DNA of 64,000 nucleotides from a virus. Below are positions 8,843 to 17,564 of this stretch, one piece after another (position 1 is the first letter of the stretch; each line of letters begins with the position of its first letter). The stretch lies in the UHGV virus genome UHGV-1380027. One strand, given 5' to 3'. A program made the translations under genes and the position numbers. Below the pieces are notes generated by a model. The model had not been told where the DNA came from. It was given only the letters and a program-made list of their open reading frames with translations, and made no database searches.

Positions 8843-11620
8843 TTAGTGACAATCGCCCCAGTTACGACCGCACAAGTATTCACCTGTGATCTGGAACGGA
8901 ACGCCCATCATTTTAGAAGCCTGCCAGAAGCAATGCACCACCATTTCGCCCACAGGGCTCCAGATAAGTTCAAGCTTTCCGTCATCGTTCAAGATAGGAT
9001 CGTATACCGTATTTCCGTCCTTGTCAACCACTTCGTTTCCGTCCTCATCTTTGCGTGCCTTTTTGTACTTATGACCGTCGAACACATGAAGTTTAGCCTC
9101 TTGTTGGGCTTTAAATGTTTCCAGCTCTTCAATTGTGTCGAAGGTGTATACAGTTTTATACTTAGGGGTGTCAGGCACTTGAAGCTGATATTCGTCATGG
9201 TAATAAATAATACGACGAACACCTTCATCATACCATCCACGCTTCACCATTTGGTGGTGCATGAGGATTCCGACCAAGTCGCACAACGATGCACCGCCAT
9301 TTTGCTGATATGCATTAAGCAAAGAGTGTTTAGAGCGGGTCCAAATGGCATGCCCGTCAAAAGAGTAGATAAATTTCTTACCTGTTGCTTCCCAGAATTT
9401 CTCCAGATCCTCTTTGCGCCCCTTAAGACCTGGGTTGGCATCCCAGAGAGCATCAATTACTCTCTGCCCCAGTTCTGGAGAGATATCCAGCATATCTGCA
9501 ACTTTATCTTTTTGTGCCCCATACATAACCCCATACGTGATAGGTTTACCATCGTTACGAGACACCTCTCTACCTGCTACTTTTGTATATGCCTCAGCAT
9601 TGTTTTGGTGCGCGTCCCCGTTACTTACAACATCATAATACAGGCCGTTGTCAAACTCAAATGCACCCCAGGCCCCGATGAGCTGCTCTAAGTTGGACCC
9701 GTCAATACCGATCTCAAAGTATCCAGGAGGAACACCCCACAGACTACGCATCTCTTTACCCATAACCACTTTAGGAGATGGTTTAGGCATGTTTGCACAA
9801 ATACTATGTTTCTGTCTGGAAGTGTTTGTTAATCCAGAACTTTTAGCAGGAAGCTTGTGGTCAATCTTCAAACGTGGATGATTAAGAAGACCAGTATCAA
9901 CCTTATCTTCCTTGATTGGATCAAGGACCGATCTGCGGTTTCGCAATGATAACCACAAAACGATATCTTTAGCCATCTCTCCGTTCAATTTTTCAAGATT
10001 CGGGCACAGGTGTCCAAACGTATCTTTCAGTTGCGGAGAAGTAATAAGCGCTCTGGCTTTTCTACGTATCTTCCCAAACACTTCCTTTTTAATCCTTTCT
10101 GAGTTAGGGAAGCTTCGGAACTTATGCACAGTTGTCTGGAACTTGGCATCAGTTTTGTTCCAGAAGTTGATAATTAGATCACAATACTCTGACTCCAAAA
10201 GCTCGTCCATATATGCATATACTCGTGCATCAACATCTGCATCAGGTAAAGCTTTCTTCTTGCTGTCTTTAGTTACATCTTTAGTTCTCCACATTGTTGG
10301 GAGCCAACCAGCACTGATCAGGTATCGCTTGATGTCGTCCTGATTGCTGATTTTCATAGGTATCTTGCAGTCAGGCATTCGCTTCTGCTGTAGGTCACTT
10401 ATCGCCTGATCCATCAGCTCTTTAGGTAAAGGGTGTGGTGTAGAAGTTCCTTTGATATACCCCCTCAAGAAATCAGCCATCTTATCGGGGTCTTTACAGC
10501 CCATCTCTTCACACCATTTTATCCCCATCTTACTTACATCCCCTGTGGAGGTAAATGCTCGCTTAGGAGGAGCTTTGAACTCTAAAGCACTCATGTCCAC
10601 AGGGTAGCCAAGCTTGTCTTTTAACCATTTCCAACCATTATTGGAGATTGTCCCATCCTGGTTAAACGGCTTTTCAGGGAACTTAGGCCGCTGAGACATT
10701 GATAACTCTTTTAAAGGAAGTTGTGGTTCAACACGATCAGCGATCTCTTTCATCCACGCATCGCAACGGTCACGTAAAGCAATAGCCCCATCTATGTCGA
10801 AATACACCCCCTGTCGAGCCTGCAGCTCCATCAGGAAGTGCTGTAACATGCCTCGGCGTAATGCGTTCTTCCAGGTGATCTTCTTGAAGCCTTTCGGCTT
10901 CTCTTTGGCAGGATCGTACATAAAGTTCTGCATGTCAGATTTGCCGTAGAATACACCTTTTGATTCAGCTACCAACTCCTTCCAGAGCAACTCCTGAATG
11001 ATAACGTCCTCGAACACACGATCCACATACTTCCACAGCGGAAGCTCACGCCAGTCATCGATTTGAACTTTCTGGTTACCAAGGGCATAGCCCCATGCCA
11101 TAAGGCCATGAGGCCCAACAGGCTGCATTTTCTTGGTAACTGGATTGAATACTGCGTCCGGACAACCTTTTGGCAAAGGGCGGTCAGGCCACAAGATTCG
11201 ACTCATCGCTAACGTATCAAACAGATTAACCTGGTGGTCGTTGATAGTTCCCATGCATTTAGGATCACGGAACATATCAAAATGAATACCGGATAATCTT
11301 TCCATCAGCATAAAGTCGTAACTGTAGCAGTTATGGCAGTTCAAAGCCGTAGGTGACCAGTCTGAATTGCCTGTAAGCCAGCCTTCCAACTCTGAAAAAT
11401 CTGCTATGCGAGCCTCAAAATCTGTATAAAGGGTCTTCTTTGCCAGAATGAAGTTCTTAGCTTTCTCCACATCCTCTTCAGAGTAGTGTGTGCGGTCATT
11501 TAGGGGAAGGAACAGCATAAAACGGTTCTTATTCAGCTCTTTAAACAAACCGCAGTGATAATAAAGATCTGGGTCTTCCAGCAAGCCAGAGGCCTCAAAA
11601 TCGAACGACCACATGCTCAT
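8843..11620 (-). CDS. DNA polymerase, family A, with 3'-5' exonuclease domain (925 aa)
   Basis: Exo I FDFEASGL; motif A DGSNLEQLIGAW; motif B SRNDGKPITYGVMYGAQ; motif C IIYYHDEYQLQV; SD AAGGAGA. Confidence 0.85.
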   Translation of the reverse strand: MSMWSFDFEASGLLEDPDLYYHCGLFKELNKNRFMLFLPLNDRTHYSEEDVEKAKNFILAKKTLYTDFEARIADFSELEGWLTGNSDWSPTALNCHNCYSYDFMLMERLSGIHFDMFRDPKCMGTINDHQVNLFDTLAMSRILWPDRPLPKGCPDAVFNPVTKKMQPVGPHGLMAWGYALGNQKVQIDDWRELPLWKYVDRVFEDVIIQELLWKELVAESKGVFYGKSDMQNFMYDPAKEKPKGFKKITWKNALRRGMLQHFLMELQARQGVYFDIDGAIALRDRCDAWMKEIADRVEPQLPLKELSMSQRPKFPEKPFNQDGTISNNGWKWLKDKLGYPVDMSALEFKAPPKRAFTSTGDVSKMGIKWCEEMGCKDPDKMADFLRGYIKGTSTPHPLPKELMDQAISDLQQKRMPDCKIPMKISNQDDIKRYLISAGWLPTMWRTKDVTKDSKKKALPDADVDARVYAYMDELLESEYCDLIINFWNKTDAKFQTTVHKFRSFPNSERIKKEVFGKIRRKARALITSPQLKDTFGHLCPNLEKLNGEMAKDIVLWLSLRNRRSVLDPIKEDKVDTGLLNHPRLKIDHKLPAKSSGLTNTSRQKHSICANMPKPSPKVVMGKEMRSLWGVPPGYFEIGIDGSNLEQLIGAWGAFEFDNGLYYDVVSNGDAHQNNAEAYTKVAGREVSRNDGKPITYGVMYGAQKDKVADMLDISPELGQRVIDALWDANPGLKGRKEDLEKFWEATGKKFIYSFDGHAIWTRSKHSLLNAYQQNGGASLCDLVGILMHHQMVKRGWYDEGVRRIIYYHDEYQLQVPDTPKYKTVYTFDTIEELETFKAQQEAKLHVFDGHKYKKARKDEDGNEVVDKDGNTVYDPILNDDGKLELIWSPVGEMVVHCFWQASKMMGVPFQITGEYLCGRNWGDCH

Positions 11621-11678: not shown

Positions 11679-13757
11679 TTAAAAAGGTGTTTCGTCGTCT
11701 TCAAAACCAGGAACGTGGTTAGAGGACGGATCATCATACTGAAGATCTTCCTGTGTGTCAACAGGGTTAACAGCAGGAGTTATAACCTTATCAGCCACAA
11801 CCTTGCCCACAGGTGTTTCTACAACTGCATGCTCCTGATCCTCAAACATAGCTTGAGGTCTCCAAACAACCTCTCCACCTTCCCCGTCTGTAAACATCTG
11901 CATCTCTTTATCCCAATACCAATTGCTGGCATCGTGGAACTTGCCTGTGTGGGGATCCATAACTAGAGTGTCCGCAATACCTAAGGTTTTTGCTGGGCGG
12001 TTTTTAAGACCTACCAGCCGGACACGCCCACGGGAACGATCCACCATCTCCTCTGCCTCTACCCCGACAACCACCCAGCTAAGTTGCTCCAATCCGGCAC
12101 TACCGCGAAGGTTCTCTTTTCGTACAGGGTACCAGAAAGGTAACGGATTTCCATCCTTATCCTTCGGAGGTACAATCTCTGTGCGCTTCAGGTGAGCAAT
12201 CACCAAGATAAACACATTAAACTGCTTACAGAACGCGGCTAGTTGAGTCATAGCCATGTCAAGCTCTTTACGCTCATCCTTAACATTAAGCCCTGAAATC
12301 ACCATAGACAAGTGATCCAGCACAATGTAACGGCAGTGATACAGGCACACCATTTGTTTAAGCTTAGTGATCAGCTCATCTACAGGGATGGAGCCGAAAT
12401 GCTTGAACACTTTGATTTTTCCGGCCTTGGCCCAAGATTGATGAATCTCAGCGTGCTCCTGATCGGTCAGGAACTGACTGGGGTCTTCAACAAACTCTTT
12501 AACATCAACCCCCAGCTGGTTAGCGTACAGAGAGTTGATTGCTTCCTCAGGATCCTCTTCAAGGTGAATCAGGCACAGGCGATCATCCTCTTCATAATCA
12601 TCAGCTTTAGGGCATGTTGGGTCCATCAAGTATCTTGCAATGCAATGTTCCAGCTTCTTGGCTACAGTTGTTTTACCACCGCCAGACGGGCCTGTCAGCA
12701 TCATCAAGGTGCCTTTGTGGAGTCCTTTCAGCATCTTCTGCAGTTTAGGGAACTCTGCACTAATATCCACGCCATTGGAAGTCTTCTTACGAAGAGATTC
12801 AATGGAGAAGTCTTCTAAATCAGATACAGCATCAGGCACATATTTGACTGGGTGACGGAACATGTTGACAATATCTTCCAGCTTTTTAGCCTTCAGCATG
12901 TCACGAATATCTTTTACACCATCAGGGTCGTTTACCTCACCTGGGTATTCCACGTGGTAAACGTTGTCAGCCATCAAAAATGCTGCGATATTATGCGTAG
13001 CTTCAACACCTTTGATAACGTGTTTTTGCTTCTCTACCTCGTTAGCTGCATCGTTGTCCATTGCAAGGACTACTGTTCCGTAGCTACGGATAAATTTCTC
13101 ATTGTTCGCAAAAGTGTCTACGGCGTTTGCACACCCGCAGTTAATTCCGACAAAAGGCAGGCATGGTTTTCCTGCCAGATCACCGCCGTTGATAACTGCA
13201 TCAATCCCATCCTGGACTTCTTTAGCCCACTGCTTCACCTTCGCCGGGGCTTTAGTATTGGTGAGAATTCCTTTTACTTGTACCTGATATGCAGCCTGCC
13301 ACGCTGCAATAACATCTCCTTCCCCCTCACAAACGTTAATCTGCTTGCGGTTGTTGGAGGATGCACACAGCTTTTGACCAAACATCTGGGAGTTGGCCTT
13401 TACTATGCCAACAACCGAGAAATGGCCCCTTTGCTCTTTAGGGATTGTCCAGTCCCGCTTTTTAAAGCCAGATAGATTACCGTAGCGGTCATAATACGGA
13501 AAGTAGGTGGCAGTAACAGTTACACCATCCTCTTGGGATAGCGATGATCGTACACCAAAATATTGTGCAGCCATCAGTCCAATATTTTGTTGTGGAACAG
13601 GGACAATTTTAGTATTTTCTAAAACAGTCTCTACAGTTTCAACTTCTTTTTCATCACGATAGTCTCGTTTCACACTTCCCCCACTTTTATACTTAGTTGC
13701 TTTCGGGTTTTGCTCACCGAAACGGTTGTATGCAGATGCCATGAATTTACTGCCCAT
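11679..13757 (-). CDS. primase-helicase fusion (TOPRIM domain + DnaB-like helicase), T7 gp4-like organisation (692 aa)
   Basis: TOPRIM motifs NVCEGEGD and LAMDNDAANE; Walker A LTGPSGGGKTT; Walker B IVLDHL; acidic C-terminus FEDDETPF; SD AAGGAGA. Confidence 0.8.
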   Translation of the reverse strand: MGSKFMASAYNRFGEQNPKATKYKSGGSVKRDYRDEKEVETVETVLENTKIVPVPQQNIGLMAAQYFGVRSSLSQEDGVTVTATYFPYYDRYGNLSGFKKRDWTIPKEQRGHFSVVGIVKANSQMFGQKLCASSNNRKQINVCEGEGDVIAAWQAAYQVQVKGILTNTKAPAKVKQWAKEVQDGIDAVINGGDLAGKPCLPFVGINCGCANAVDTFANNEKFIRSYGTVVLAMDNDAANEVEKQKHVIKGVEATHNIAAFLMADNVYHVEYPGEVNDPDGVKDIRDMLKAKKLEDIVNMFRHPVKYVPDAVSDLEDFSIESLRKKTSNGVDISAEFPKLQKMLKGLHKGTLMMLTGPSGGGKTTVAKKLEHCIARYLMDPTCPKADDYEEDDRLCLIHLEEDPEEAINSLYANQLGVDVKEFVEDPSQFLTDQEHAEIHQSWAKAGKIKVFKHFGSIPVDELITKLKQMVCLYHCRYIVLDHLSMVISGLNVKDERKELDMAMTQLAAFCKQFNVFILVIAHLKRTEIVPPKDKDGNPLPFWYPVRKENLRGSAGLEQLSWVVVGVEAEEMVDRSRGRVRLVGLKNRPAKTLGIADTLVMDPHTGKFHDASNWYWDKEMQMFTDGEGGEVVWRPQAMFEDQEHAVVETPVGKVVADKVITPAVNPVDTQEDLQYDDPSSNHVPGFEDDETPF

Positions 13758-14511
13758 TAATTCTTCTCCTTACTGCAGGCTCGTTTGCTAAGAATACAGC
13801 TCTTGCCCAGCCACGTGGTGTAAGGCTTCGAATCATCTTCGTCCTTGCACTCTTTCCACCTAGCTTAGCGTGTTGCATGGAATAACCACTAACCACATCA
13901 ACTATTTGCGGGACAGGTTTTGTGGCGGGGATTATAAATCCATTGCCTATCCAACCGCAAGTTATTTTTGGGTAGGCATCACGTGGAGCTATAAATTCAG
14001 GAAACCATGGGTTTACATCGTCCTCTGGTAGATACCCACCATAATCCGAAGGATGAAAACGGTAATCAGGTTTTCGCCACAGTGTTGACATAACTCCTAC
14101 AGGGTTCTCTACATGCCACGGGCAATCATAAATCTCTCCCAACTCTTCTGCAACCCGAGCATCTTTCACAGCATTAATTTGGATCAGTGGGTCCTTAGCC
14201 AGCTTTTTCTTAAAGTGTGCAGCTCCGGATACTGCTAAATGCGTGCACGGAGGAAATGCAAGAATAAAGTCTGGAGCTGGATACATGCAAAAAGTTTCTT
14301 GAGGGAACCATGGATCAATCCAATAATCCACATAGTGAATGTTAGGATGATCGGTTATCACCTCTGCATAACTACCGTGGTCAGCACCTTCTGCATTAAA
14401 GCACAGGCACAGGTACCCAGCTTTTGCCCAGTCAATAACTGCACCACCAGACCCGTCAAATAGACTCCACACGACACCTTTGTGGTAGTGTTCTTTGTAG
14501 ATAAATTTCAA
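13747..14511 (-). CDS. DNA (cytosine-5)-methyltransferase-like protein, short (~254 aa)
   Basis: motif I FDGSGG, motif IV PPCT, motif VI ENPVG; start moved from track GTG (14541, inside terminator hairpin) to TTG at 14511 with SD AGGAGA; 3' end overlaps primase-helicase start by 11 nt. Confidence 0.5.
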   Translation of the reverse strand: MKFIYKEHYHKGVVWSLFDGSGGAVIDWAKAGYLCLCFNAEGADHGSYAEVITDHPNIHYVDYWIDPWFPQETFCMYPAPDFILAFPPCTHLAVSGAAHFKKKLAKDPLIQINAVKDARVAEELGEIYDCPWHVENPVGVMSTLWRKPDYRFHPSDYGGYLPEDDVNPWFPEFIAPRDAYPKITCGWIGNGFIIPATKPVPQIVDVVSGYSMQHAKLGGKSARTKMIRSLTPRGWARAVFLANEPAVRRRINGQ

Positions 14512-14534
14512 TTTGCTGTCTCCTAATGCAAAAA

Positions 14535-14556
14535 GCCCCACCCTTTCGGGCAGGGC
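14535..14556 (-). terminator. rho-independent terminator hairpin (GAAA-loop type)
   Basis: minus-strand RNA GCCCUGCCC-GAAA-GGGUGGGGC then CUUUUUGCAUU; paired with two G-U wobbles only on minus strand. Confidence 0.6.
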
Positions 14557-14562
14557 ATAGTG

Positions 14563-15045
14563 TTAAACCCGGATACCTATTGTATACTCGGTGGATACCA
14601 ATGTCAAATCTAAATTTAAAATTTCTTGCATCTCATAGTATGCGTCCAGGGTGAGATACATTTCACCATCCTTTTCTACATACTTGTCAAGGTGTTTGAG
14701 GCACTTTGGATAGCTATCAAGGGCAGCCTTTAGGCACTCAAACTCCGTGCTGTTGATGAATCCTTCCATCTTGGCTACCCGTTCCGGAGTAACGATAGCA
14801 CTGTAGTGAGATTTAGCTTCCTGAATGCAATGGGTCCAAGCATCAACTTTCTCTTCGAAAAGTCCGAAGAACTTCTTCTTGGTGAGCTTCAGATTCTTTA
14901 AGTGCTTAAGAACTCGGTTGCCGATTACAGACACATCACGAAACTTAAGGATCACTTTGTCAATATCCTCGCGGCCTATTTTCACAAAACAAGCCTCACA
15001 CATTTCAGGAGAGGCATAACCTACCTTCCACATAAAATCTGACAT
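14563..15045 (-). CDS. hypothetical protein (160 aa)
   Basis: co-oriented ORF followed by terminator. Confidence 0.5.
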   Translation of the reverse strand: MSDFMWKVGYASPEMCEACFVKIGREDIDKVILKFRDVSVIGNRVLKHLKNLKLTKKKFFGLFEEKVDAWTHCIQEAKSHYSAIVTPERVAKMEGFINSTEFECLKAALDSYPKCLKHLDKYVEKDGEMYLTLDAYYEMQEILNLDLTLVSTEYTIGIRV

Positions 15046-15057
15046 AACACTCTCTCC

Positions 15058-15456
15058 TTATTCCTGAAAAGCAACAATATCATATGCACTTGCAGATGAT
15101 CCTGGTGAAGAGTGACTCCAGTCTAGGTCATCAGAGTAGTCAGCATACTGTGCACCGCTACGTAGTTTGTATTTTACCCACTTACCTGGTGCAGGGTTTT
15201 CACCACCTTCCCACACTTCCCAACCTTCTGGCAAGCCGTTATCTTGGGAGTAGCCATCAACTTCACTAGCGATCTCTGGGTTTGGCACCAAGATCCATGC
15301 AGGCTCTTCCTTCTTAGCAAGTGTCCACACAATGTATGTGTCTGAGCAGGAGCATGTCAGTAAAGTATACCCACTGTTCAGAACTTCTGCAAGCTCTTTT
15401 TCAGCATCTTCTAATTTGGTTAGGTGGTATTGGATAATCTTCACATCTGTAATCAT
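15058..15456 (-). CDS. hypothetical protein (132 aa)
   Basis: co-oriented ORF. Confidence 0.5.
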   Translation of the reverse strand: MITDVKIIQYHLTKLEDAEKELAEVLNSGYTLLTCSCSDTYIVWTLAKKEEPAWILVPNPEIASEVDGYSQDNGLPEGWEVWEGGENPAPGKWVKYKLRSGAQYADYSDDLDWSHSSPGSSASAYDIVAFQE

Positions 15457-15758
15457 TAGAAGCCTCCTACTTCTTCAGCAAATGCTGCCGCTGTCGTCGC
15501 TGCATCCAGATAGGACTCTAGTTCACGTGCTGCACGTTTGTAAATCGAGTGGCGCAGATCGTTTGGTAACTGGTGAAAATCCACCTCTTCTCCGTTGTGG
15601 TAAACATGCACATCAGTAATCTGTCTAAATCCATAATAATCAACATCAGAATCACGGCACTCCGGATCTGGCAACTGGACAACTGCCTGAGCTTCTACAG
15701 TGAGCATATCGTCAAGTTCGAAATCGATTTCAAAAGTGTATGGTTTATAACGCTTCAT
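15456..15758 (-). CDS. hypothetical protein (100 aa)
   Basis: SD TAAGGAGAA; translation initiation region nearly identical to that of the methyltransferase gene at 17161. Confidence 0.5.
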   Translation of the reverse strand: MKRYKPYTFEIDFELDDMLTVEAQAVVQLPDPECRDSDVDYYGFRQITDVHVYHNGEEVDFHQLPNDLRHSIYKRAARELESYLDAATTAAAFAEEVGGF

Positions 15759-15817
15759 CGTTTGGTGTTCTCCTTATCTTGTGTGAAGAGTAGACCTACC
15801 CTTAGATATTTTAAATA

Positions 15818-17161
15818 TTACTCTAAATCTTCTTCTGAGTCAAGCTTATCTTTCATAACTAAGTTCGGGGCAAGTTTGTAATAGCGAAAGCCCCCGCCAC
15901 CTTGCCAGTTTACAGATTTAGAAATACCACTTTGATCTTTGCCATCGATCACTTTTTGCAAGCGCGGGATGATATGGGTATGACAATGATCACCTAACTC
16001 GACAGAGATCCAACGTCTTTTCATCTTGTGAGCTACGGCAGCAGTAGTTCCTGAACCGCCGAATGAATCCAAGACTAAATCTCCTTCTCGCGTACACATT
16101 TCGAAAATTCGCTTCAAAAGCGCTTCGGGCTTTTTTCCATTTTTGAAACTAACGCCGCCTTCATTTGCTATTCCATTCCAACTAATGTCAGTCCAAACAT
16201 CAGTTATTAGTTCAGCAGGCTGCATCTTGCCGTCAATTTCCAAAAGCCTATTGGAATAAAAGACCATTTGCCTACCATTTGCGATATAAAAGCCTTCGAC
16301 ATCCTCATTTGGATGTACATAAACCTTATCCCTATCTTTCTTTGACTTCTCGATAGTTTCTTTTCTCTTTATTTTGGCACCACCGCCAATTGCAACGGAT
16401 TGAAATACACGTTCTGCATTATCAATTGCAAATTGTGCTAATTCATCATCAAATGTATCAGGCAGTTTTTTCTTGGCTTCTTTTGTATCTTTATAGCCAT
16501 TGGCCTTTGCAAACGCATCGGCAATACCGCACCACGTCCAACTTTTATAATGGTCATCTGGGTTTAATAGATATTTGTTATATCCCGTATCATACTCTTT
16601 AGGTATATAGATTTTGTTAAGTGGTTTCTTGGTACGATCTTTTGCATATACAAGCAAAAAGTTTGCTGTGGAGAAAACTGTAGTTCCTGTTGCCTTAAAG
16701 CCTGAAGGGCAATTTGTAGTCATCGATATGGTATTTAACTGATTTGCACGACCAAAAATCTCGTCCATCAAGACTTTTAAATAAGCCATTTCGCAGTCAT
16801 CTAAGTGAACGAATATCACTCCATCATCGCTTAGCAGATTACGAATTATTTCTAATCTGTCCCGCATTAAGCCCAGCCAAATGGAGTGCTCCAGGCTATC
16901 ATCGTAGTGCTCAAAATCCCTTCCGGTATTGAATGGCGGGTCTATGTAAACACACTTCACTTTGCCTGCATACTCTTGCTCTAGTGCCTTCAATGCCAGT
17001 AAGTTATCTCCAAAAATCAGTTTATTATCAAAAATATCGTTTTCGGTCACCTTTTTACTGGCGTGATAAGACTTGCTCGAATCTTCTAACAAAATGTGAG
17101 GCTCTAGCTTTTTGCGCTCGTTCTTACCTATCCAGGTAAGTTCTAATTTGGTTTTACTCAT
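15818..17161 (-). CDS. DNA methyltransferase, beta-class amino-MTase (N6-adenine or N4-cytosine), 447 aa
   Basis: motif IV IDPPFNTG precedes motif I LDSFGGSGTT (beta-class order). Confidence 0.75.
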   Translation of the reverse strand: MSKTKLELTWIGKNERKKLEPHILLEDSSKSYHASKKVTENDIFDNKLIFGDNLLALKALEQEYAGKVKCVYIDPPFNTGRDFEHYDDSLEHSIWLGLMRDRLEIIRNLLSDDGVIFVHLDDCEMAYLKVLMDEIFGRANQLNTISMTTNCPSGFKATGTTVFSTANFLLVYAKDRTKKPLNKIYIPKEYDTGYNKYLLNPDDHYKSWTWCGIADAFAKANGYKDTKEAKKKLPDTFDDELAQFAIDNAERVFQSVAIGGGAKIKRKETIEKSKKDRDKVYVHPNEDVEGFYIANGRQMVFYSNRLLEIDGKMQPAELITDVWTDISWNGIANEGGVSFKNGKKPEALLKRIFEMCTREGDLVLDSFGGSGTTAAVAHKMKRRWISVELGDHCHTHIIPRLQKVIDGKDQSGISKSVNWQGGGGFRYYKLAPNLVMKDKLDSEEDLE

Positions 17162-17222
17162 CGTTTGGTGCTCTCCTTAGTTTTTGTGGGGAGGAGTGCC
17201 TCCCCTTTATACTCACATCTTA

Positions 17223-17564
17223 CTACTCAAGGTCTTCAGAGTCAAGCTCAAAAAGAATCAAACTGTGCATGCCTGCAGAGAGATCAACACACCCTGCAAC
17301 AATAAGGGTTTGATAGTAAGGTTCAGCACCCTCAATATCTTCGTTAAAATCCACAACAAGGTAGTCACCTTTGTTAAAGGTGTATTTGTCCGATGTAAAC
17401 GCAAAACCTGCCCAGTCCCCTACTGCAGGATCTTTATCAGTCACCTTTGTTAGCAGTAGATCTTTTTCACGAGATCTTTTAGTAAAATCGTGAATCACAA
17501 CATCCTTCTCTTCAGGAGTCGGATTGCCACACACGTAGTTAACGATATTTCTCCACAAACTCAT
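17223..17564 (-). CDS. hypothetical protein (113 aa)
   Basis: co-oriented ORF, 4-nt overlap with helicase gene. Confidence 0.5.
   Translation of the reverse strand: MSLWRNIVNYVCGNPTPEEKDVVIHDFTKRSREKDLLLTKVTDKDPAVGDWAGFAFTSDKYTFNKGDYLVVDFNEDIEGAEPYYQTLIVAGCVDLSAGMHSLILFELDSEDLE

Follow-up and report, generated by a model that had tools for sequence, protein, structure and literature searches.

Orphan DNA methyltransferases (methylases) are known from several phages, among them T4, T1 and P1 (Dam). A part of a host methylase can be taken up as well: the lactococcal phage phi50 reportedly captured the LlaI methylase domain of pTR2030 (Hill et al. 1991). This lytic phage has no nuclease and presumably pre-methylates its own DNA. 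Here we analyze a comparable arrangement in the virus genome UHGV-1380027, a stretch of 64,000 nucleotides which at its full length is referred to as the window in the following. Two open reading frames (ORFs) of its replication module, a long one at 15818..17161 and a short one at 13747..14511, had been recognized as methylase genes by their motifs in a first-pass annotation made from the sequence alone, and both are indeed present on the minus strand with intact catalytic motifs. Like phi50 the window phage carries part of a host-type methylase without a nuclease; unlike in phi50 this part stems from a type III-like Mod, cut in such a way that exactly the domain on which the nuclease would dock appears to be removed. 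We consider it probable that these two stand-alone methylases are a short enzyme forming 5-methylcytosine (5mC) and a disarmed Mod of host origin, which acts as an antidote to a host restriction system.

For both genes better studied relatives are at hand. In the type III enzyme EcoP15I the methylase domain of Mod ends at residue 516 and the C-terminal domain (CTD) comprises residues 539-644; the CTD of ModA contacts the nuclease subunit Res, and dimerization takes place through the N-terminal domain (NTD) and the methylase domain (PMC4490356). Mod2 alone is an active methylase (PMC3333885). A relative of the short gene is the 711-bp dcm gene of the Drexlerviridae phage K42, itself a relative of phage KarlJaspers, which triggers the retron Ec86; expression of this gene raised 5mC in multicopy single-stranded DNA (msDNA) as determined by liquid chromatography coupled to mass spectrometry (LC-MS), and no rise was seen with the quadruple mutant C82A, E128A, K175A, K176A (bioRxiv 10.1101/2023.08.16.553469).

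Judged by its sequence the window stems from a Vequintavirus, i.e., an rV5-like lytic myovirus of Escherichia coli. The region 13000-17500 is 98% identical at the DNA level to Escherichia phage vB_EcoM-ECP26 and gives 119 matches of 80-99% identity to phage records, mostly named Escherichia phage; 86 of these records span at least 80% of the region. The genus follows from those matching records whose taxonomy was read, which are Vequintavirus. Neither the rV5 genome paper nor the survey of Korf et al. mentions methylation of these phages or resistance of their DNA to digestion. Both genes are already named in public records ('Dcm-like C5 cytosine methyltransferase' for the short one, 'putative N6 adenine methyltransferase' or 'type III ... 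mod' for the long one), so that their existence is not new; what adds to the existing database annotation is only the domain-precise truncation of the Mod and its relation to a host gene.

The long methylase gene

The long gene and its main features are the following.

15818..17161, minus strand: type III Mod-like N6-adenine methyltransferase gene, 447 amino acids (aa), without the C-terminal Res-docking domain
16931..16942, minus strand: motif IV DPPF (adenine pocket), aa 74-77; D74, P75 and P76 invariant in 26 homologues
16046..16066, minus strand: motif I FGGSGTT, binding S-adenosylmethionine (SAM), aa 366-372; F367, G369, S370, G371, T372 and T373 invariant in 26 homologues
15832..17174, minus strand: stretch 94.3% identical at the DNA level to an E. 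coli chromosomal mod gene (blastn against L008 7987-9330), comprising the ribosome-binding site and codons 1-443 of 567

The order of the motifs, with DPPF before FGGSGTT, had suggested a beta-class amino-methyltransferase, and the match of the protein to PF01555 (E = 8e-43 over aa 68-394) agrees with this. More precisely the protein is a type III Mod. It resembles three solved type III Mods including EcoP15I (4zcf, 6k0w, 7dsu) both by sequence and by fold, with 26-31% identity over the structurally aligned regions. With the PADLOC model MTase_III (PDLC03636) the match is very strong (1.3e-205) and covers only profile positions 2-445 of 575, whereas the homologous E. coli Mod described next (P0271) covers positions 2-572.

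The closest homologue cluster of the long protein is a 567-aa Mod encoded on the E. coli chromosome, to which it is 95% identical over residues 1-443. In strain SMN013SH2 the product is WP_024226319.1. On the DNA level the homology begins 14 nucleotides (nt) upstream of the start codon and runs to codon 443. Compared with the phage copy the E. coli Mod has about 124 extra C-terminal residues, and its gene is followed by a gene for a 912-aa Res-type helicase-nuclease (PADLOC REase_III, 8.8e-191). Because the identity of 95% in protein and 94.3% in DNA includes the recognition domain, the phage and the E. coli Mod are expected to share their target.

The end of the phage Mod aligns to about residues 520-530 of EcoP15I. 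The EcoP15I CTD (residues 539-644), which makes the contact to Res, therefore has no counterpart in the phage protein. The phage also has no res gene; neither a Res-type gene nor one for a nuclease was found beside the long ORF, which is thus an orphan mod. Since the phage Mod stops in the linker before the CTD, it should retain the parts for recognition and methylation and be without the part which recruits the nuclease.

A junction alignment places the end of the homology between phage and E. coli mod at the phage stop region. In the related phages Bas51 and Bas55 the homology runs on for about 20 nt past an 8-nt deletion which creates the stop codon and then gives way to the next phage gene. 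The window phage Mod has a short tail different from that of Bas51 and Bas55, and there are about 50 extra nt at the 3′ end of mod and in the spacer (15758-15845 compared with L006:15712-15860). Generally the 3′ end of the truncated mod and the spacer vary among Vequintaviruses and yield products of 441 or 447 aa. We also considered whether the 100-aa ORF downstream could be the detached C-terminal domain of Mod, and rejected this as there is no similarity.

In E. coli the mod and res genes are part of an island (L008:2106-12464) with genes for a helix-turn-helix (HTH) protein, a DrmD-like SNF2 helicase, Abi_2 and AIPR proteins and with IS66. Of 5,426 complete E. coli genomes 29 have the Mod-Res locus, among them isolates from poultry (avian pathogenic E. 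coli, APEC), cattle and humans. The gene order SNF2-Mod-Res is also found in Acinetobacter (L017:366-9571) and in a Bacillus-related genome (L016:2143-9428), for which the source names the protein from [Bacillus] caldolyticus. The genes between SNF2 and mod differ: Abi_2 and AIPR in E. coli, AAA_21 and DUF4276 in Acinetobacter, and none in the Bacillus-related genome. Across phyla the Mods of this subfamily are 58-76% identical over a region which includes the recognition domain; by sequence comparison the Mod of the SNF2-Mod-Res triad is unusually conserved.

An assignment of the host island to MADS or ARMADA was rejected: apart from the HTH protein nothing scores with the MADS1 model, and the island differs in its set of genes from both MADS and ARMADA II. 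The RefSeq label 'mads1' on the island HTH gene (L015:4115-4315 in SMN013SH2; 82 bits at a cut-off of 80) may be misleading, the island being otherwise without the eight-gene make-up of MADS. A second truncated copy of the Mod, with 444 aa and 81% identity, lies between PhoH and ClpP genes on a contig which carries genes of large-phage type (NrdD, PhoH, ClpP, Dam-type methylase).

The short methylase gene

For the short gene the following features were identified; invariance refers to an alignment of 28 family members.

13747..14511, minus strand: gene for a short C5-cytosine DNA methyltransferase of 254 aa, beginning with TTG; member of the phage family phrog_757 / 'Dcm-like'
14443..14460, minus strand: motif I FDGSGG (SAM binding), aa 18-23, from the translation; G20 and S21 at least 90% conserved in the family
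14242..14253, minus strand: motif IV PPCT with the catalytic Cys89, aa 87-90; P87, P88 and C89 invariant
14095..14109, minus strand: motif VI ENPVG with Glu135, aa 135-139; E135, N136 and P137 invariant
13747..13757, minus strand: 11-nt overlap of the methylase gene end (stop at 13747-13749) with the primase/helicase ATG (at 13757)

The three motifs in a 254-aa frame, whose 3′ end overlaps the start of the primase/helicase gene, are thus found as first described. The TTG start codon at 14511 is preceded by a ribosome-binding site (AGGAGA) 7 nt upstream. A longer version could start with GTG at 14541; since this codon falls within a terminator-like hairpin (14535-14556) and the TTG has a ribosome-binding site, the 254-aa version is the better gene model. 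The annotations of the BASEL phages Bas55 and Bas51 show the same 765-nt gene and the same 11-nt overlap. Further downstream the segment IRSLTPRGWARAV (aa 227-239) resembles motif IX, an assignment made by eye and not by residue-level structural alignment; a motif X of the GN(S/A)V type was not identified by eye in the protein.

The protein matches phrog_757 ('DNA methyltransferase') with 5.8e-87. It has 4,183 homologues in a 90% clustered database, and the best 120 of these 4,183 measure 219-262 aa. At 50% identity the family forms 1,013 clusters, nearly all with lengths of 210-260 aa. The family is represented in 1,506 phage records, which include Drexlerviridae, Dhillonvirus and Kagunavirus as well as other large myoviruses; one member lies in the nin region of a lambdoid prophage, and in some unrelated phages members adjoin helicase genes. 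PF00145 is matched by 16 of 28 relatives, by three of them above the curated cut-off of 22 bits, and these matches are confined to profile positions 4-94, the part which holds motifs I-IV.

Structural comparison gives the short protein the fold of a DNMT3-like C5-methyltransferase, although the identity to the catalytic domains of DNMT3A and DNMT3B is only 12-16%. These domains comprise about 285 aa, of which the recognition region takes up very little, and the phage enzyme is likewise small, with about 60 residues available for target recognition; unlike DNMT3A and DNMT3B it has no regulatory domains and no DNMT3L-type partner. The gene had been called unusually short in the first-pass annotation, with little room for a target-recognition domain. 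Since nearly all members of the family are of 210-260 aa the length is a family trait and not an anomaly, and the DNMT3 catalytic domains too manage with a very small recognition region; a 54%-identical member is reported to be active.

This active member is the K42-type Dcm. The gene bas06_0055 of KarlJaspers (711 bp) encodes a protein near-identical to K42 Dcm, and the window protein is 54% identical to the KarlJaspers protein over 235 aa. Of the residues mutated in K42 Dcm, C82, E128 and K175 correspond to C89, E135 and K182 of the window enzyme. The two enzymes are of similar length (236 and 254 aa) and both are orphans of lytic coliphages; their genomic neighborhoods differ. Because a relative of this identity with aligned residues is reported to make 5mC, comparison of the sequences indicates that the short window enzyme very probably is active too and forms 5mC in DNA.

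Selection and direction of transfer

We compared the two genes between the window, Bas51 and E. coli by the ratio of nonsynonymous to synonymous substitution rates (dN/dS) and by the synonymous divergence (dS).

Mod-like gene, window versus E. coli: dN/dS 0.11, dS 0.21
Mod-like gene, window versus Bas51: dN/dS 0.05, dS 0.32
Mod-like gene, Bas51 versus E. coli: dN/dS 0.085, dS 0.18
Short gene, window versus Bas51: dN/dS 0.03, dS 0.35

Purifying selection acts on both methylase genes; they are no relics. As to the origin of the Mod-like gene, it is full-length in the bacterium, has res beside it there and is broadly distributed among bacteria, which favors a transfer from host to phage, as far as can be judged from sequences. 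Divergence profiling did not show the methylase region as a low-divergence island in the phage genome, and the capture is undatable in this way.

The primase/helicase gene has a dS of 0.88 between the window phage and Bas51, which is far above the 0.32-0.35 of the methylase genes. Along the genome the identity between these two phages changes like a mosaic between 84 and 97%, as would be expected if members of the genus recombine frequently.

Methylation in the relative Bas51

Bas51 (WalterGehring, MZ501111) offers methylation data for the genus. Two methylase genes, as first counted, is correct for the window; in Bas51 there are four annotated methyltransferases. According to a paper from 2025 the GATC sites of the virion DNA are methylated by a 'Bas51 N6 adenine methyltransferase', which also acts as the trigger of two retrons (PMC12548924). 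We considered whether this enzyme is the orthologue of the long window ORF and rejected it, as the published residues D69, D79 and T83 are found only in bas51_0176 (L007:8091-8624). This gene encodes a 177-aa NPPY enzyme and is the published GATC methylase and retron trigger. The fourth gene, bas51_0200 (L007:24069-24887), encodes a 272-aa NPPF adenine methylase which is type II-like. Neither bas51_0176 nor bas51_0200 has a match in the window. The GATC methylase and retron trigger of Bas51 therefore differs from both window genes, which corrects an easy confusion.

The source data of this paper list for the wild type 1405 methylated adenines in GATC, 509 in GTAC and 576 in other contexts, and for the T83P mutant 35, 511 and 349, respectively (PMC12548924). 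Since the Bas51 genome has 703 GATC and 258 GTAC sites, both motifs are essentially fully methylated (GTAC about 99%). This dense adenine methylation of the virion DNA shows that the genus methylates its own DNA. That the GTAC signal is 5mC laid down by the short enzyme and miscalled as N6-methyladenine (6mA) was judged unlikely, as two other adenine methylases are available. Over the whole Bas51 genome the ratio of observed to Markov-expected occurrences is 0.99 for GATC, 0.59 for GTAC, which is depleted, and about 0.70 for CCWGG (229 found, 328 expected), a mild depletion; such word statistics gave no clue to target sites.

Proposed role of the two methylases

What the sequences show are the homologies, the domain content, intact motifs, purifying selection on both genes and a host locus in which res accompanies mod; that both proteins methylate DNA is an inference, and we propose the following course of events. 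Both enzymes would be made together with the replication proteins and would methylate the nascent phage DNA. The short enzyme would add 5mC at a short motif and block nucleases which are inhibited by 5mC, possibly at the cost of being detected by sensors of the retron Ec86 type. The phage Mod would dimerize and write the self mark of the host system on the phage DNA without assembling with the host nuclease. Protection by the Mod would then be specific to strains carrying the SNF2-Mod-Res system.

Several points weigh against this proposal. The short protein taken alone has no Pfam (PF00145) or NCBIfam match and no significant sequence match in the PDB. Its presumed recognition segment is GYSMQH (GYSxQH type) as against DNPGW in K42 Dcm, and the CCWGG target of K42 Dcm was assumed by analogy with the host Dcm and is supported only by mutation of the msDNA site (bioRxiv 10.1101/2023.08.16.553469). 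The Bas51 methylome was called for 6mA only, not for 5mC; the 6mA at GTAC does not depend on the GATC enzyme, and for GTAC as for the 'other' sites no gene has been assigned. For the Mod, the role of the CTD is carried over by analogy from EcoP15I, which is only distantly related. The host locus always comes with the SNF2 helicase and may differ from a textbook type III system. Measured by dS the E. coli mod stands about halfway between the two phage copies (0.18-0.21 compared with 0.32 between the phages); this fits a slow host gene which resembles the ancestor of faster phage copies, the direction of transfer being unproven by dS. Finally, the BASEL study found the Vequintavirinae to be exceptionally susceptible to the tested restriction systems.

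The last point decides what kind of protection is to be expected. As the Vequintavirinae are very restriction-sensitive, any protection must be narrow, and a narrow, system-specific protection by the Mod agrees with their general sensitivity. Of the original proposal that the methylases are self-protective anti-restriction enzymes, the part concerning the long ORF thus gains strong indirect support from its being a near-identical truncated copy of a host mod gene, whereas broad protection is at odds with the sensitivity of these phages.

Going further than the antidote proposal, SNF2-Mod-Res might be a distinct and little-studied defense module, against which the disarmed Mod of Vequintaviruses acts in two ways, writing the self mark and possibly also poisoning the assembly of the nuclease. 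We offer this as a tentative idea which we ourselves regard as rather doubtful.

Alternatively, the methylases could serve the DNA transactions of the phage itself, by setting marks for packaging or replication, by avoiding MutH or SeqA or by tuning expression, comparable to P1 Dam in packaging. Such a role would be in line with the location of both genes in the replication module, the probable translational coupling of the short gene to the primase/helicase gene, the position of some members of the short family beside helicase genes in unrelated phages and the persisting sensitivity of the Vequintavirinae to the tested restriction systems. A near-identical copy of a self-marking enzyme of the host is, however, hard to square with a housekeeping role, and the GATC methylase able to affect MutH or SeqA is a different gene. 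We regard this explanation as unlikely.

A further possibility is that the truncated Mod is mainly a subunit poison which, methylating or not, forms mixed dimers with the host Mod and so lowers the number of Mod2Res complexes. The truncation in the linker before the CTD and the 95% identity to the host Mod would suit such a decoy, as would the known architecture of EcoP15I with dimerization through the NTD and the methylase domain and Res binding through the CTD of ModA; purifying selection fits it as well as it fits catalysis. But a pure decoy could dispense with the catalytic and SAM-binding residues, all of which are conserved, and mixed dimers would still hold one CTD. It is quite unlikely that poisoning is the main function of the truncated Mod.

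For the short enzyme a place in a base-modification pathway had been put forward, i.e., the transfer not of methyl but of some other group (such as carboxymethyl, with carboxy-S-adenosylmethionine, Cx-SAM, which E. coli makes, as donor) or the start of a hypermodification. The CmoX cytosine C5-carboxymethyltransferases have the motif SPPC and, at the position of HhaI N304, an arginine binding the carboxyl group, and they are usually encoded near a phage CmoA (Cx-SAM synthase) and a ligase. The short enzyme has FPPC and not the CmoX-type SPPC; the annotation of the complete Bas51 genome, a relative, lists neither CmoA nor a ligase, the window ORFs not having been individually profiled for CmoA; the 54%-identical K42 enzyme yields 5mC by LC-MS; and the genus is exceptionally restriction-sensitive. 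The idea is very improbable and has no evidence on its side.

That one or both genes are inactive relics, as could be suspected from the truncation of the Mod-like gene and its variable 3′ end (441 or 447 aa), is hardly credible in view of dN/dS values of 0.03-0.11, invariant catalytic residues, a cut at the domain boundary and the occurrence of the region in 119 phage records, 86 of them covering at least 80%.

Gene neighborhood

Around the two genes the following further features are found.

11679..13757, minus strand: primase/helicase gene, downstream of the short methylase gene and overlapping it
14579-14607 and 14535-14556, minus strand: promoter-like site, then terminator-like hairpin and T-run, directly upstream of the ribosome-binding site of the short methylase gene
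14563..15758, minus strand: three small ORFs (160, 132 and 100 aa) between both methylase genes, function unassigned; PHROG matches only to unknown-function families

All genes of the methylase region are on the minus strand, in the order rIIA, rIIB, Dda/PIF1-type helicase, a 113-aa ORF, the long methylase, the three small ORFs, the short methylase, primase/helicase and DNA polymerase. As had been noted before, no cognate endonuclease is apparent: neither of the two genes has a nuclease partner encoded beside it in the phage, and no restriction-enzyme gene was found between or beside ORFs 13747..14511 and 15818..17161. The three small ORFs gave no Pfam matches and no nuclease by any profile searched. 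The 100-aa ORF (15456-15758, minus strand) weakly resembles phrog_1573 ('DNA methyltransferase') in the C-terminal part of that family (2.5e-5).

The promoter-like site is of sigma-70 type (TTGACA-17-TACAAT, 11 of 12 positions in a consensus scan) and lies inside the end of the upstream ORF. The hairpin has nine pairs, seven of them G-C, and is predicted to lie in the 5′ leader of the short methylase gene.

In the window the gene for DNA polymerase is uninterrupted (8843-11620, 925 aa). In the corresponding region of Bas51 (L006:19933-24283) the annotation divides the polymerase in two, and a putative homing endonuclease gene, bas51_0078, falls within its span; another homing endonuclease gene is located between primase/helicase and polymerase.

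Among the database records, 16 GenBank entries (MG0656xx) that bear the name 'Campylobacter phage' and give C. jejuni as host share about 93% identity with this E. coli Vequintavirus region. The short methylase family is carried by 39 'Campylobacter phage' records, some of them with genomes of 35-50 kb. These records look mislabelled or contaminated.

Significance

The suspected oddity of the short gene is cleared up: a cytosine methylase which seemed too short is an ordinary member of a very common phage family with one active member. The long gene shows that widespread coliphages which are candidates for therapy carry a copy, about 94% identical in DNA, of a host restriction methylase. The SNF2-Mod-Res module of the hosts is worth characterizing. 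If the proposed role of the Mod is true, these phages would provide a testable example of a lytic phage disarming one specific host defense, and it is predicted that there are E. coli strains, about 0.5% of the complete genomes, which the phage would be able to infect only thanks to its copy of mod.

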